Shown here piece after piece: positions 45,955 to 50,293 of a DNA stretch of 64,000 nucleotides; position 1 is the stretch's first letter, and each line of letters opens with the position of its first letter. This DNA is from Staphylococcus phage vB_SauM-UFV_DC4, in sequence record MZ779063.1; one strand, 5' to 3'. A program made the position numbers and the translations under genes. Below the pieces are notes generated by a model that saw only the letters and a list, made by a program, of their open reading frames with translations, was not told where the DNA came from and did not search any database.

Positions 45955-45990
45955 GAAGAGAGTTTAAATACTCTCTTCTTTATTTTTTTT
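45955..45990 (+). terminator. Hairpin GAAGAGAGT-ttaaat-ACTCTCTTC followed by a T-run
   Basis: After the 43826..45910 stop. Confidence 0.6.
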
Positions 45991-46004: not shown

Positions 46005-46631
46005 ATGTGTATGAGATTGATAGACTTTAAAAAAATGCTTAAAGAGAATACTAGGAACATAGAAATTTATTGCGATGGAGCAATTAAAGGTGTTAGATCA
46101 AAAGGAACTAAATATGGAGGTATTGGTATTATTCCCGTACAAGAAGATCTATTTGATTATATATCTATACCTTACATAGGAAAAGATCTAACCAATAATA
46201 AATTAGAGATGTTGGCTGTACTATTTACTATATTATTCTCATTAGAGGTCTCTCAAGAGTATAAAGGTAAAACAAATATTAATATAAAGTCCGATAGTGA
46301 ATATACGGTTAATGGTTATAATAAAAATTTAGATAAATGGATAAATCAAGGTTGGAAAAACTATTCAGGTGCTGACGTTAAGAATAAAGAATTATGGCAG
46401 TTAATTGAAAGAGTTAAATATTATTTAAATAGAAACAGAAATAAGTATTATGTAAATTTACAATGGACTAAAGGACATGATAATGAAAAATATAACGAAT
46501 TAGCAGACGAATATGCTGTTAAAGCTAAAATGGAAGCATATGAAGACAATGACAGTGCTTTTTCTATAGAATATGCTATTGATAAAGCTAATAAATTTAT
46601 AACTAAATTAGAAAAGAAAGAGGTATTGTAA
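46005..46631 (+). CDS. rnh: Ribonuclease H (RNase HI family)
   Basis: Catalytic-motif layout IYCDGA (Asp), NNKLEMLAV (Glu), IKSDSEYTV (Asp), WTKGHDNEKYNELADEYA (His/Asp). Confidence 0.7.
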   Translation: MCMRLIDFKKMLKENTRNIEIYCDGAIKGVRSKGTKYGGIGIIPVQEDLFDYISIPYIGKDLTNNKLEMLAVLFTILFSLEVSQEYKGKTNINIKSDSEYTVNGYNKNLDKWINQGWKNYSGADVKNKELWQLIERVKYYLNRNRNKYYVNLQWTKGHDNEKYNELADEYAVKAKMEAYEDNDSAFSIEYAIDKANKFITKLEKKEVL

Positions 46632-47186
46632 ATGGCAACTAAAATAGATTTTAATAATGAAGACGATTATAATGATGTATTAAATATAAACGATTGGAAT
46701 AGACTATGTATGGACTTCTGTATTAGATCTGCTAGTATTAGTAAATGTGCTGCTAAACAAGTCAGCTCAATTGTAGCTGATAAAGATTCTATATTTTCTC
46801 TTGGAGTAAATGGTTCTTTTCCGGGTAAACTAAATTGTAATGAAATATTTAAAAAAGAAGATGGAATTTGGTATGTAAAAGATCTTAATGAAGAAACTAA
46901 TTTAATTGAATGGGTTAAATGCGAAGATCAAGAACAGCATCATAAATGGTCTTTATTAAATGAAGTTCATGCTGAAATAAATGCTTTATCTAAAATGAAT
47001 AAAAAAGGTATTTCTACTGAAGGACTAGACTTATATTGTACTCACTCACCATGTTATAATTGTGCTAAAAGTATAATTGCTGCTGGAATTAAAAATGTCT
47101 ATTTTAATGAATTATATGATGGTTATGAAGATGTTATGGAATTATTAGTTTCAAATAATGTTAACTTCATTAAAGTGGAGGTCTAG
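46632..47186 (+). CDS. dCMP (deoxycytidylate) deaminase / cytidine-deaminase-fold zinc enzyme
   Basis: Zinc-binding signature HAEINAL...(28 aa)...SPCYNCAKSIIAAGIKNVYF (H-A-E ... P-C-x-x-C). Confidence 0.7.
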   Translation: MATKIDFNNEDDYNDVLNINDWNRLCMDFCIRSASISKCAAKQVSSIVADKDSIFSLGVNGSFPGKLNCNEIFKKEDGIWYVKDLNEETNLIEWVKCEDQEQHHKWSLLNEVHAEINALSKMNKKGISTEGLDLYCTHSPCYNCAKSIIAAGIKNVYFNELYDGYEDVMELLVSNNVNFIKVEV

Positions 47187-47190
47187 AATT

Positions 47191-47373
47191 ATGTCTTGGT
47201 TACCTTTATCAATATTTATATTTATAGGAATATTACTTATTTTATCAACAAATGAAACAAAAAGAATGGTAAGAACTGAAAAATTGAAAGAAGAAAAAGA
47301 TTATTTAAAAAGACAAAGATTTAATAATTTAAGGACTAGTCAAAGAAAGCGAGGAAAAGTAGATGTTAGATAA
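47191..47373 (+). CDS. Small single-pass membrane protein (track ORF 47158..47373; likely true start ATG 47191 after GGAGG)
   Basis: MSWLPLSIFIFIGILLILST hydrophobic helix, then a basic tail. Confidence 0.4.
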   Translation: MSWLPLSIFIFIGILLILSTNETKRMVRTEKLKEEKDYLKRQRFNNLRTSQRKRGKVDVR

Positions 47374-47854
47374 TGTAATTATACTTAGTGCTTTATCTAT
47401 AGCATTCTTTTTAACTACTTTAACATTTATATTTCTAACAATTCATTTTAGAAAAGAATTAGTTAAAAATGTTAAAATGAATAAAAATTATAGAGATAAA
47501 ATAGCTATTTTAGAAAAGCAAACAACTGGAAAAGATGTATTAGATTCATTAAATTCTATGATCGATGAGTTTTTAAAACCTACTTATGATTTAACTATAG
47601 AAGAAACATACATGGATTTAAAATTAGACAATCCTCTAGTTTCAAATAGAAATATAACTATATCTGAACAAAGAAAAAATGTTATACTTGAAGATGTATT
47701 TGAGAAATTCATGAATTATTTATCTGATGATTTCAAAAATAAATTATCTTTAATATATAAAGAAGATGAAATAGAAAATATGGTACTAGATATAATGTAC
47801 TATAAATTAACTGTATATATAAAAGAACGTAACGAGTTACAAAAAAATTCTTAA
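47363..47854 (+). CDS. Membrane-anchored hypothetical protein
   Basis: N-terminal transmembrane helix IILSALSIAFFLTTLTFIFLTI. Confidence 0.45.
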   Translation: MLDNVIILSALSIAFFLTTLTFIFLTIHFRKELVKNVKMNKNYRDKIAILEKQTTGKDVLDSLNSMIDEFLKPTYDLTIEETYMDLKLDNPLVSNRNITISEQRKNVILEDVFEKFMNYLSDDFKNKLSLIYKEDEIENMVLDIMYYKLTVYIKERNELQKNS

Positions 47855-47860
47855 AAATAT

Positions 47861-47900
47861 CCCCTAACCTTATTAATTTAAGGTTAGGGGGTTTATATTA
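47861..47900. terminator. Bidirectional hairpin CCCCTAACCTT-ATTAATTT-AAGGTTAGGGG (identical to the copy at 18996) followed by a T-run
   Basis: Between convergent genes 47363..47854(+) and 47907..48674(-). Confidence 0.65.
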
Positions 47901-47906
47901 TTTTTT

Positions 47907-48674
47907 TTATAATAGAACATTTATTAAATCTGTTAAAAATCTCAATTGATTTTTATAAGATAAATCTTCAATTCTTACTTCTTCATCAATATCATCTTCA
48001 ATATACATTTCCAATGTATCCATTTCAATGATATATTTATTTTCAATTATATCTTTATAATAACCAGAAGTTAAATTATAATTAATCATATTATCTTTAA
48101 ATAATAAAAGTTTCTTATACAAATCCATTTTATCTTTCTTTTTATCTTCCCAAAGACACTCTATTAAAAATTTAAACATGTAATCCATATGATGTTCCTT
48201 AACACCATTTTGATAACCTTTTACATCTATTTTATTTTGATATAAGTTTATATAGTGTTCTTTACCTAATACATTTATATAATTATCATACTCTTCACTT
48301 TCAGCAAATCTAACATGTTTTGATATCTTTAAATTATTACATTTCTTACCAATAACAAATATAGCATCTTTTTTAATACTTAAAATATCACTATCTTTAA
48401 GATTATTATTCTCTATAAAGATTTTTCTAGCTATCTTAAAACCATTCATTAAAACTTCATTCATTTTTTTATTACTTCTCAACATTTTACCAATAATAAC
48501 ATTTCTTTCATATTTCTGAGTATTTCTTAATTTATTATATTGTTCTTCATTAAGATAACCTGAATCATATAATATATTCATACCAGCTGATTTAATATCA
48601 TATTCAGTAATTACAGTATCTTTAATATATCTTACGTCTGATGTGTAATTAGTTTTCATGTATAAATTAGACAC
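47907..48674 (-). CDS. Hypothetical protein
   Basis: ORF, GGAGG RBS. Confidence 0.5.
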   Translation of the reverse strand: MSNLYMKTNYTSDVRYIKDTVITEYDIKSAGMNILYDSGYLNEEQYNKLRNTQKYERNVIIGKMLRSNKKMNEVLMNGFKIARKIFIENNNLKDSDILSIKKDAIFVIGKKCNNLKISKHVRFAESEEYDNYINVLGKEHYINLYQNKIDVKGYQNGVKEHHMDYMFKFLIECLWEDKKKDKMDLYKKLLLFKDNMINYNLTSGYYKDIIENKYIIEMDTLEMYIEDDIDEEVRIEDLSYKNQLRFLTDLINVLL

Positions 48675-48924
48675 TGCAATTACCTCCTCTATAATATTTT
48701 AATAAAACAATTACTATTTAAAAATACATTAGCTAAGCAATTCATTTATAATCCTCCTATATAATCATCGCCAGCCTCTTTACTAATTTCATATTCTCTC
48801 TCAATATCTTCTTCTGATTTACCTTGTAATCCTTCTGCAACTTCACCATATTCATCAAGTAAAAAATCTAAAAATCCCATTATAAAACCTCCTCAAAATT
48901 GTAATCTAATTATCTTCGTAAATT

Positions 48925-49485
48925 TTAATTCTTAACAAAGTTATGTTTCATTAATGTCTTAATAAATTCTTTATTAGTTAACCAATCTCCAGTATTATTA
49001 ACTACTTCAAGATCAGTTACTTCATCTAAATCTTTCTTTTCTTTCTCTAAATCTTCTTTATTTCTTCCTTCACGTTTAACTTGATTCTTTTCATTAACTA
49101 CTTGAATAGTAATAATGTCAGAATCTTCACCATATTTCTCTTTAATATCTCTTACAGAAGCATCTCTACCTTCTCTATTTACAATAATAATATTTACATT
49201 ATAAATACCATTTTGCGGATATTCTAAACTTTGATCAATTGTACCGTAATAATTTTCATAGAAATTAGTCTTAGCTATTAAATTACCTTTCATACCATCA
49301 TATTCTTCTTTATTTAAGAATACATAATCTACGCCATTTTTCTCATCTTCTCTTTGCTTTCTAGTAGTTACTTGATCTAATTTTTTAAAGAATAAATGCG
49401 GATATTCCTTTTGATCTGATAAATTATTTGCCAATACAGTTTTTCCTGAACCTGATACACCACATAATAAGATAAATTTTTTCAT
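48925..49485 (-). CDS. Guanylate-kinase-family nucleotide (d)NMP kinase
   Basis: P-loop LCGVSGSGKTVL, then VTTRKQREDEKNGVDYVFLNKEEY, matching the guanylate-kinase S/TTR...G.DY.F...EF signature. Confidence 0.65.
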   Translation of the reverse strand: MKKFILLCGVSGSGKTVLANNLSDQKEYPHLFFKKLDQVTTRKQREDEKNGVDYVFLNKEEYDGMKGNLIAKTNFYENYYGTIDQSLEYPQNGIYNVNIIIVNREGRDASVRDIKEKYGEDSDIITIQVVNEKNQVKREGRNKEDLEKEKKDLDEVTDLEVVNNTGDWLTNKEFIKTLMKHNFVKN

Positions 49486-49561: not shown

Positions 49562-50293
49562 TTATGATTTAATTCCATCAGATTCTCTTAATTTATCAAT
49601 TAATTCTATAAATTCATTGTATTTCTTATCTACAATTTTAAGATAATTATATTGAGAATTAGAAGCAACTTCATCTTTTTTCTTTTCTTTTAATTCATCA
49701 CGTTTTTGGTAGTGATTATTTTTACCTTTAATTTCTATTAATAAATTAAAATCAGGAAGATAAAAATCAGGCATGTAGAAATGTTTCTTATTAGCAAACG
49801 TATAAGGAATAGCTATATTAGAAGGAGATAATACATTATTAGATTTAAAATCCATTTGTTTATCTAAGAATTCTAAGAAATCTTTTTCATAAGATCCGAC
49901 ATATTGAGTAGGTAAACCTTTGCCAGAACTCCAATGATATTTGCCTGAAATTCTTCTATTTTCTAACATTTTATTTTGCATTTCAGGGTCATTTAATAAA
50001 GTAGTCTTACCGTATTTTTTATTCATTCTATCTTTAAATTGTTGTCTATATTTATCTTTACATACTTTATCATGTACACGTTCATACTTTTCAGTTTGTT
50101 CATTAAATTTAGTAGGTTTACCACATATAATGCACGTACCATGAGTTTTCTTATTTCTGAAATTAAAATATATATTAGCTGCAGATAATTCACCTAATTC
50201 TTTTTCATGAAATTTCTCCATATGATTATAAAGACCTTTTTTATCTACATATTTCTTTGTACAGAATGGACATTTATGATATTTTGTAGCCAT
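49562..50293 (-). CDS. Zinc-finger protein with a C-terminal endonuclease-like segment (speculative)
   Basis: C2H2-like CPFCTKKYVDKKGLYNHMEKFH and CIICGKPTKF...H...C; C-terminal LLIEIKGKNNHYQKRDELKEKKKDE resembles the IEINGxxWHS cores above. Confidence 0.45.
   Translation of the reverse strand: MATKYHKCPFCTKKYVDKKGLYNHMEKFHEKELGELSAANIYFNFRNKKTHGTCIICGKPTKFNEQTEKYERVHDKVCKDKYRQQFKDRMNKKYGKTTLLNDPEMQNKMLENRRISGKYHWSSGKGLPTQYVGSYEKDFLEFLDKQMDFKSNNVLSPSNIAIPYTFANKKHFYMPDFYLPDFNLLIEIKGKNNHYQKRDELKEKKKDEVASNSQYNYLKIVDKKYNEFIELIDKLRESDGIKS

Follow-up and report, generated by a model that had tools for sequence, protein, structure and literature searches.

Which gene encodes the deoxyuridine monophosphate (dUMP) kinase of phages that carry uracil in place of thymine in their DNA, and from which source would such a kinase receive its dUMP? 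The question is raised by a zinc-dependent deaminase gene and a gene annotated as guanylate kinase, which lie at positions 46632-49485 of a 64,000-nucleotide stretch (the window) of the Staphylococcus phage vB_SauM-UFV_DC4 (UFV_DC4; sequence record MZ779063.1). The original prediction for this locus was a linear route, in which the deaminase makes dUMP from deoxycytidine monophosphate (dCMP; the other nucleotides are abbreviated in the same way) and the kinase phosphorylates this dUMP. The open reading frames (ORFs) and the motifs on which it was built were found where it had placed them, and the Pfam matches of the encoded proteins are above the curated cut-offs. Our analysis points to a different division of labour. 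The kinase appears to belong to a distinct subfamily of the guanylate-kinase fold and is a candidate dUMP kinase, and the deaminase most likely makes dUTP directly from dCTP.

Fold and ligand-binding residues of the kinase

The kinase carries the motifs G9-V-S-G-S-G-K15-T16, T40-T41-R42, G-V-D-Y54-V-F and EEY and matches the Pfam family Guanylate_kin with 44.1 bits against a cut-off of 25.2. Its match in PHROG is PHROG 1815, named guanylate kinase, and its best PDB sequence matches obtained with HMMER are guanylate kinases (E 2.7e-10 and weaker). An AlphaFold2 model with a predicted local distance difference test (pLDDT) of 94.8 was compared with the PDB by Foldseek, and all of the top 50 matches were guanylate kinases, with E-values down to 2.6e-11. 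The solved guanylate kinases are related to the model with a template modelling (TM) score of about 0.6 and an identity of 15-25%.

The ligand contacts of human GUK1 are known (PMC11349198). Arg41, Arg44, Tyr53 and Tyr81 bind the acceptor phosphate, Ser37 and Glu72 form hydrogen bonds to the guanine and are joined by Thr83 in the closed form, and Arg137 and Arg148 take part in the transfer of the phosphate. The kinase of the window keeps the phosphate-binding residues R42, R45, Y54 and Y80, the P-loop lysine K15 and the lid arginines R138 and R141. The guanine-reading pair is replaced. HMMER and MAFFT alignments place Gln38 at human Ser37 and Ala71 at human Glu72, and the change from Glu to Ala at position 71 was seen independently when the Plasmodium and Anaplasma structures were aligned with HMMER. 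In yeast numbering, Q38, A71 and N103 stand in place of Ser34, Glu69 and Asp100. The canonical D-I-D strand motif reads I-V-N.

When scored against the guanylate-kinase equivalog TIGR03263 (NCBIfam), the kinase reached 58 bits, below the cut-off of 160.45. Because the guanine contacts are lost and this cut-off was failed, we do not class the protein as a guanylate kinase. What the original prediction took for a clear signature of this enzyme holds for the fold and the phosphate-binding residues, and fails for the residues that read the base (Gln38/Ala71). We infer from the residues kept and lost that the protein is an active nucleoside monophosphate (NMP) kinase whose substrate base is not guanine.

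The Gln-type subfamily

When 1.84 billion representative proteins were searched with a HMMER profile, 146 matched at E <= 1e-10. For the alignment (n=147), 139 database proteins of 150-320 amino acids, mostly from the best 150 listed matches, were combined with 8 references. Gln was found at position 38 in 123 of the 147 sequences, and none of these 123 had Glu at position 71, which was Ala in 66, Gly in 41, Cys in 7 and one of a few other residues in the remainder. Among the 24 sequences without Gln38, Glu was present at position 71 in 21.

In the Gln group R42, R45, Y54, Y80 and R141 are invariant, E149 is nearly invariant and R138 is 88% conserved, while the mean column identity of the subfamily alignments is about 20%. 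Such invariance of the catalytic and phosphate-binding residues at this low identity argues for an enzyme that is active but has altered its base pocket, and not for a decaying or non-catalytic domain. As read from the alignments, the replacement of the pair by Gln and a small residue defines a large subfamily through a fixed and coupled signature, rather than reflecting drift.

Two pocket variants were observed among the Gln-type kinases. One has Ala71 together with Thr82 and Val102 (60 Ala/Thr), and the other has Gly71 together with Ser82 and Leu102 (25 Gly/Ser, 39 Gly/Leu). Both occur in phages with deoxyuridine (dU) in their DNA: PBS1 and the Staphylococcus phages have the Ala/Thr pocket and phiR1-37 has the Gly/Ser pocket.

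Occurrence of the kinase in uracil-DNA phages

Over 3.6 kb around the two genes the window is 98.3% identical to phage PALS_2, 96.0% to S6 and about 94% to Madawaska and MarsHill. The published gene coordinates of UFV_DC4 equal those of the window plus 32000 (five genes compared): RNase H ends at 78631, followed by the dCMP deaminase at 78632-79186, the guanylate kinase at 80925-81485, an endonuclease at 81562-82293 and a baseplate gene at 82473-82874. By this offset the window very probably spans UFV_DC4 positions 32001-96000. RNase H, deaminase and kinase carry the same names in the UFV_DC4 paper and in GenBank for PALS_2, Madawaska, MarsHill and SA1. The DNA of S6 has been reported to have thymine wholly replaced by uracil, which upholds the premise that the locus belongs to a uracil-DNA phage. 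The DNA of MarsHill, Madawaska and Machias behaves as uracil DNA would: it resists enzymes with A or T in their sites and needs a uracil-tolerant polymerase for amplification. For PALS_2 and SA1, uracil DNA has been proposed from their genomes. These comparisons support the assignment of the window phage to the Staphylococcus jumbo phages of the S6/PALS_2/UFV_DC4 type, within the uracil-DNA jumbo-phage group.

The distribution of the kinase was analysed by tblastn of 50,697 phage genomes with the window kinase and phiR1-37 g056 as queries. Full-length relatives were found only in PBS1, AR9, Goe21 and Internexus, in BpSp, in the Staphylococcus jumbo phages, in Listeria phage LPJP1 and in Yersinia phage phiR1-37. 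Judged by these matches, the kinase-bearing set is that of the known or presumed uracil-DNA jumbo phages. The signature is also carried by two metagenomic jumbo-phage contigs in which the gene order is the same. It was absent from the six other phage 'guanylate kinases' that were checked (Lactococcus AM1, Enterococcus 9183, Liberibacter SC1, Stenotrophomonas ANB28, Bacillus Izhevsk and MT835528), which match the window kinase over the N-terminal half only.

In metagenomes, at least 120 clusters at 50% identity carry the signature in the form Q-x-T-T-R, L-I-[AG]-K-T and I-I-[VL]-N. A broad alignment of 54 kinase sequences had no stretch conserved enough for a pattern-based locus search, and a closer alignment led to 6 IMG/VR loci, too few for a co-occurrence statistic.

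A further arrangement was seen in Lactococcus phage AM1 (L006, 2959-4360) and Enterococcus phage 9183 (L007, 1947-3579). There, a guanylate-kinase-like gene that keeps the Glu lies beside or near a long gene (about 247 amino acids) annotated as dUTPase, and in AM1 it also adjoins ribonucleotide reductase genes. This arrangement may be another nucleotide module.

Substrate of the deaminase

The deaminase has the motifs VH113-A-E115 and P-C141-YN-C144 and matches the Pfam family dCMP_cyt_deam_1 with 60.8 bits against a cut-off of 25 (E 1.2e-16). The protein is 100% identical to those of PALS_2, S6 and Madawaska and is present in one copy per genome. Outside the Staphylococcus clade, its best tblastn matches are in PBS1-like phages. 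It is 44% identical over 169 amino acids to PBS1 gp112 (Dcd_PBS1, UniProt A0A223LD31; E 4e-53) and 32% identical to T4 Cd (E 5e-23).

Dcd_PBS1 was annotated as a CMP/dCMP deaminase before its purification. The purified enzyme was specific for dCTP, with a kcat of 15.4 per s and a KM of 137 uM, inactive on dCDP, dCMP and CTP, and inhibited by dUTP (Li et al. 2025, PMC12697855). The same study lists the proteins of AR9, BpSp, Machias, PALS_2 and SA1 as the closest homologues of Dcd_PBS1 (PMC12697855). Within this family (dCMP-deaminase family IPR016473), specificity for dCTP over dCDP and dCMP is known only for the enzymes of PBS1 and phiR1-37.

The numbering of residues in Li et al. matches gp112 exactly, and all nine metal ligands and both deoxycytidine (dC) ligands are kept in the window deaminase. 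In the catalytic metal site, H113, E115, C141 and C144 correspond to H102, E104, C130 and C133 of Dcd_PBS1, and in the second, structural metal site C39, C69, H103, S107 and E111 correspond to C22, C52, H92, S96 and E100. The dC-binding residues V44 and N60 are V27 and N43 in Dcd_PBS1. The C-terminus is co-linear with that of Dcd_PBS1 and lacks the last 14 residues of T4 Cd, residue 170 being equivalent to T4 165 and the protein ending at 184, compared with 193 in T4. The absence of these 14 residues has been credited with making room for the triphosphate (Li et al., PMC12697855). Against the ComEB equivalog TIGR02571 the deaminase scored 74.5 bits, below the cut-off of 219.45.

Because the window deaminase is an ortholog of Dcd_PBS1, an enzyme shown to be inactive on dCMP, we read it as dCTP-specific. 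Most likely it makes dUTP directly from dCTP, and it is therefore probably not feeding the kinase. The conversion of dCMP to dUMP assigned to it in the original prediction is not favoured by its nearest characterised homologue, which takes neither dCMP nor dCDP, and the proposed chain from the deaminase through dUMP to the kinase would lose its first step. A correction of the annotated substrate from dCMP to dCTP is likely to apply to the deaminases of the Staphylococcus jumbo phages.

Other steps of the uracil-DNA pathway

PBS1 gp39 was identified by exact look-up as UniProt A0A223LEB8, the characterised dTMP phosphatase Dtm_PBS1. A homologue with 36% identity (E 1.6e-33) is encoded outside the window in PALS_2 at 186505-187224 (PALS2_197, 'hypothetical protein'; L020 36505-37224) and carries the motif D-C-D-E-V (D-x-D-x-V). 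A strict scan for the HAD motif missed the phosphatase, and a looser pattern found PBS1 gp39. PALS2_197 lies two genes downstream of a divergent family-B DNA polymerase (PolB) gene, with PALS2_196 between them. In PBS1, too, the phosphatase gene neighbours the divergent polymerase gene, gp39 directly adjoining gp40. In the Staphylococcus jumbo phages, the dTMP phosphatase homologue carries no such annotation.

The annotated nucleotide metabolism of PALS_2 consists only of NrdH, NrdI, NrdE, NrdF, the deaminase and the kinase. According to Iyer et al., PBS1-like phages can have uracil DNA on condition that they lack both thymidylate synthase and dUTPase. A missing thymidylate synthase and a dTMPase elsewhere in the genome had been named as features to look for. 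By annotation and motifs, no thymidylate synthase was found in PALS_2, the closest complete genome, and PALS2_197 is the putative dTMPase. The UFV_DC4 paper does not mention thymidylate. For the uracil-DNA glycosylase inhibitor Ugi, others have found no known type in the Staphylococcus, Listeria and Yersinia uracil-DNA phages.

The candidate dUMP kinase

Infection by PBS1/2 induces a dUMP kinase activity, which Li et al. mention as an activity without a gene (PMC12697855); the statement of the original prediction that PBS2 induces such an activity is borne out to the extent that this citing paper reports it, for PBS1/2. Among the papers searched on a phage dUMP kinase, and on guanylate kinase in AR9, PBS1, phiR1-37 or uracil phages, no gene was assigned. 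In PBS1 three proteins, gp63, gp101 and gp129, are annotated as 'kinases'. Of these, gp129 is homologous to the window kinase, with 29% identity and the same signature. The 'gluconate kinase' gp63 was rejected as the dUMP kinase, as it is a YunG-like protein without a PALS_2 homologue. The 'adenylate kinase' gp101 was rejected as a candidate shared by both phages, having a marginal P-loop match and no PALS_2 homologue, and is at most a possible candidate for PBS1 alone. Apart from the gene for gp129 and the window kinase, PBS1 and PALS_2 share no credible NMP-kinase-like gene.

The kinase is a candidate dUMP kinase because its guanine contacts are lost, because it is restricted to uracil-DNA phages, and because it is the only shared NMP-kinase-like gene. 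These three findings strengthen the original proposal. The induced activity is tentatively linked to the gp129 family by elimination.

The best overall explanation, to which we give about an even chance, combines a dCTP deaminase with a phage dUMP kinase in a uracil-DNA phage. The deaminase would use its HAE/PCxxC metal site to turn dCTP directly into dUTP, the T4-type tail that would close the pocket around a monophosphate being missing. The kinase would return dUMP to dUDP, from which the host nucleoside diphosphate kinase would then give dUTP. This dUMP could originate from the host dUTPase acting on dUTP or from a host dCMP deaminase, and its phosphorylation would draw it away from the host thymidylate synthase. 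In the base pocket, a carboxylate that accepts the N1-H and N2-H of guanine would have been exchanged for a Gln amide, which is both donor and acceptor, as expected for the N3-H and O4 of uracil. In herpes thymidine kinase and the enzymes of the dCK/dNK family, a conserved Gln reads the base in a comparable way. That dUMP is the main substrate of the kinase falls, on the sequence evidence, slightly short of an even chance. More tentatively, the Gln/small-residue variant of the guanylate-kinase fold may be the missing dUMP kinase of the uracil-DNA phages and be pyrimidine-specific. It would be, to our knowledge, the first enzyme of this fold with specificity for a pyrimidine nucleotide.

Several points weigh against this explanation. 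The direct route from dCTP to dUTP makes a dUMP kinase dispensable in principle, so the enzyme is not strictly required. The exchange of Glu for Ala or Gly enlarges the pocket, which would suit a purine (dAMP) or a broad specificity no less than uracil. The Roseophage dU system had no match to the kinase in the tblastn search of the phage genomes. The restriction to uracil-DNA phages may reflect common descent, as these phages share many exclusive genes. For the deaminase, specificity can drift at 44% identity: bacterial relatives of Dcd_PBS1 prefer dCDP, some take dCMP weakly, and the DSS3_VP1 enzyme has measurable activity on dCMP. The induced dUMP kinase activity is old biochemistry, known here through the paper that cites it, and a kinase of an unrecognised fold could carry it. 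Finally, ThyA, ThyX, dUTPase and Tmk were found neither among the 280 annotated features of PALS_2 nor in a motif scan of its six-frame ORFs, but the scan, with its crude motifs, is a weak test.

Alternative explanations

The alternative that survives best is that the kinase acts on another substrate. This could be dCMP, leading to dCTP and through Dcd to dUTP, or dAMP, or a broad range of deoxynucleoside monophosphates (dNMPs) like that of T4 gp1 and the T5 kinase, the link to uracil DNA then being one of descent. A kinase with intact catalytic and phosphate-binding residues and lost guanine contacts would be consistent with this, and the Gln amide could pair with C, A, U or T. The genome has a G+C content of about 25%, and with about 75% A+T its demand for dATP and dUTP would be high. 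In PBS1 and in contig L014, moreover, the conserved neighbours of the kinase are replication genes (RNase H and the PolB-like gene) and not the deaminase, and many other genes are specific to the clade of uracil-DNA phages. Against this, dUMP kinase is the only NMP kinase activity reported to be induced by this phage group, and no other NMP-kinase-like gene is common to PBS1 and PALS_2. The host enzymes Cmk and Adk already handle dCMP and dAMP. Since Staphylococcus jumbo phages of this kind are generalised transducers, a dependence on massive salvage of host DNA would not be expected. We consider another substrate possible, though on the unlikely side.

The linear route, in which the deaminase converts dCMP to dUMP and the kinase phosphorylates that same dUMP, is improbable on the deaminase data. 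The closest characterised homologue is inactive on dCMP, the window protein lacks the C-terminal tail found in the dCMP-specific T4 enzyme, and the ComEB score lies below its cut-off. The family name in Pfam and PHROG, dCMP deaminase, speaks for the route, as do T4 Cd and ComEB, which are dCMP deaminases, and the residual dCMP activity of some Dcd_PBS1 relatives and of the DSS3_VP1 enzyme. The distance between the two genes, 1.7 kb in the window, would also suit it, but the genes sit in convergent transcription units and are about 15 kb apart in PBS1.

The GenBank annotation, by which the kinase would be a divergent but ordinary guanylate kinase that boosts the supply of GDP/dGDP, can draw on the Pfam score, the PDB matches in sequence and fold and the PHROG name. 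We judge it very improbable, since Ser is replaced by Gln and Glu by Ala, the Asp100 position is also changed, the replacement is fixed and coupled across the whole subfamily, the TIGR03263 score is far below its cut-off and the TM score is only about 0.6. That the protein is a non-catalytic, MAGUK-like binding module is hardly credible: guanylate-kinase folds have been recruited for binding, and MAGUK and p55 chains are among the weak PDB matches, but the P-loop G-x-S-G-S-G-K-T is intact and the catalytic and phosphate-binding residues are invariant or nearly so at about 20% mean identity.

Gene order and neighbouring genes

The features of the region are collected in Table 1. The span 46632-49485 comprises two convergent transcription units and is no single operon. 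The plus-strand unit consists of RNase H, the deaminase and two small ORFs, and the minus-strand unit, opened by the zinc-finger/DUF7487 endonuclease gene, continues with the kinase, the 44-aa ORF and the 255-aa ORF. Both units converge on the bidirectional hairpin, at a place that matches terminators annotated in Madawaska. Five terminator-like sites were observed, compared with 0.5 expected from shuffles.

Table 1. Features around the deaminase and kinase genes, with their positions in the window (aa, amino acids)
Feature	Position	Strand	Evidence or remark
terminator-like hairpin	45955-45978		upstream of RNase H
RNase H (RNase HI-like)	46005-46631	+	Pfam PF00075, E 6e-22; first gene of the plus-strand unit
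deoxycytidine-nucleotide deaminase, zinc-dependent, 184 aa	46632-47186	+	PBS1 Dcd ortholog; predicted dCTP deaminase
small ORF, one hydrophobic segment	47158-47373	+	ORF list; hypothetical in Madawaska and PALS_2
163-aa ORF, N-terminal hydrophobic segment	47363-47854	+	ORF list; last gene of the plus-strand unit
bidirectional intrinsic-terminator-like hairpin	47859-47892	both	14-pair stem, T-runs on both strands
255-aa protein, fold like palm/fingers of family-B DNA polymerase	47907-48674	-	phrog_21037, no assigned function
44-aa acidic ORF	48746-48880	-	between kinase and PolB-like gene; hypothetical in PALS_2 and Madawaska
guanylate-kinase-fold NMP kinase, candidate dUMP kinase, 186 aa	48925-49485	-	Pfam PF00625, E 2.5e-11
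zinc-finger and DUF7487 endonuclease-like protein	49562-50293	-	Pfam DUF7487, E 3.6e-9, plus C2H2 finger

The stop of RNase H abuts the start of the deaminase, so the placing of RNase H directly upstream in the original prediction was right. Its single module for nucleotide metabolism and replication did not stand, because deaminase and kinase sit in convergent units and their adjacency is confined to Staphylococcus and Listeria phages. The two genes are about 1.5 kb apart in LPJP1, and in contig L014 no deaminase was found within 10 kb of the kinase.

What is conserved instead is the position of the kinase beside the protein of about 255 aa, with RNase H and the DUF7487 endonuclease nearby. 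Homologues of the 255-aa protein, 39-43% identical, adjoin the kinase in PBS1 (gp130), in LPJP1 and in two metagenomic jumbo-phage contigs. The DUF7487 endonuclease is 53% identical to PBS1 gp124 and is the same neighbour of the kinase in LPJP1 and in the contigs L008 and L014. Around phiR1-37 g056, none of the 8 neighbours examined had a Pfam match, and no link to Dcd or Dtt was established.

The AlphaFold2 model of the 255-aa protein (pLDDT 95.3) matched herpes simplex virus UL8, an inactive PolB-like protein, and archaeal and eukaryotic family-B polymerases in a Foldseek search of the PDB (E 1.7e-5 to 1e-3, TM 0.4-0.57). No Pfam family was matched, including DNA_pol_B. In 61 homologues E24-Y25-D26, K101 and D103 are invariant and K102 is nearly so; E-Y-D26 and K101/D103 sit where the polymerase motifs A and C would be. 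The idea that the 255-aa ORF supplies the catalytic part lacking in a split polymerase was rejected in that form, since PALS_2 encodes its divergent PolB catalytic subunit (PF20286) separately.

The two ORFs that follow the deaminase matched no family in Pfam or PHROG searches, and for the first of them the relatives annotate a shorter version of 59 aa. Both are small, have hydrophobic N-terminal segments and are co-transcribed with RNase H and the deaminase. In the minus-strand unit, about 160 nucleotides at the 44-aa acidic ORF (MGFLDFLLDEYGEVAEGLQGKSEEDIEREYEISKEAGDDYIGGL) are 87-95% identical to unrelated Staphylococcus phages of about 140 kb, which suggests a recent exchange of this region between phage groups. 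A repeat suspected at 48680-48930 was rejected, since blastn against the window and PALS_2 gave a single copy. Elsewhere in the window, the plus-strand gene at 5289-7010 matches PALS_2 in two pieces, 205395-205844 and 206837-208051, around an HNH homing endonuclease gene.

Significance

The phage, its genes and their labels are already known, and the 2025 study that characterised the deaminase family explicitly lists the PALS_2 protein. Within the literature searched, three results appear to be new. The first is that the so-called 'guanylate kinase' of uracil-DNA jumbo phages represents a subfamily of its own, in which the two guanine-reading residues are replaced in a coupled way. The second is the restriction of this subfamily to uracil-DNA phages among cultured phages, and the third is its resulting assignment as candidate dUMP kinase.

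The use of uracil for thymine in DNA is a classic phage counter-defence, whose enzymology was partly assigned to genes only in 2025. The dCTP deaminase, the dTMP phosphatase and the dTTP pyrophosphatase were assigned then; the dUMP kinase and the dUTPase inhibitor are still without a gene. Which gene encodes the PBS2-type dUMP kinase is a question that is decades old, and it becomes testable with one easily expressed protein of 186 residues. The exchange of Ser/Glu for Gln/Ala also offers a residue-level hypothesis for a change of base in a guanylate kinase. If the assignment is true, the kinase would be an enzyme for making dUTP analogues and would illustrate how an NMP kinase switches its base specificity, and its signature would serve as a marker for uracil-DNA phages in metagenomes, where sequencing cannot tell them from thymine-DNA phages. 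Some of the Staphylococcus jumbo phages are discussed as candidates for biocontrol or therapy. Should the kinase turn out to be a divergent Gmk, the region would be ordinary, already-annotated nucleotide metabolism.

Comparison with known systems

For the deaminase, the nearest known system is Dcd_PBS1, with the same catalytic site, second metal site, dC-binding Val/Asn pair and short C-terminus. PBS1 is likewise a uracil-DNA jumbo myovirus with multisubunit RNA polymerases. The two enzymes differ in that the window deaminase carries an acidic N-terminal extension of 17 residues and has an insert shorter by 6 residues. Their genes differ in position: the PBS1 gene adjoins ribonucleotide reductase, whereas the window gene follows RNase H.

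T4 Cd and ComEB share the fold and the HAE/PCxxC chemistry with the window deaminase, which also has the T4-type second zinc site. They are set apart from it by the low identity to T4 Cd, the missing C-terminal residues and the score below the ComEB cut-off. In T4 the dUMP feeds thymidylate synthase or hydroxymethylase, whereas the phage group of the window appears to be without such an enzyme.

The window kinase resembles the guanylate kinases (Gmk/GUK1, EC 2.7.4.8) in having the core, the NMP-binding domain and the lid, with the P-loop, the TTR motif, two Arg, two Tyr and the lid Arg. It differs from them by Gln/Ala, or Gln/Gly in relatives, in place of Ser/Glu and by I-V-N in place of D-I-D, and its type occurs in uracil-DNA jumbo phages rather than in cells. 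T4 gp1, the T5 kinase and T7 gp1.7 are dNMP kinases of protein families different from that of the window kinase, which matched only guanylate-kinase models. The likeness to them lies in the role, as these phage kinases fit the step from dNMP to dNDP to the composition of their own DNA. The dUMP kinase activity of PBS1/PBS2, finally, comes from the same phage group as the window phage.

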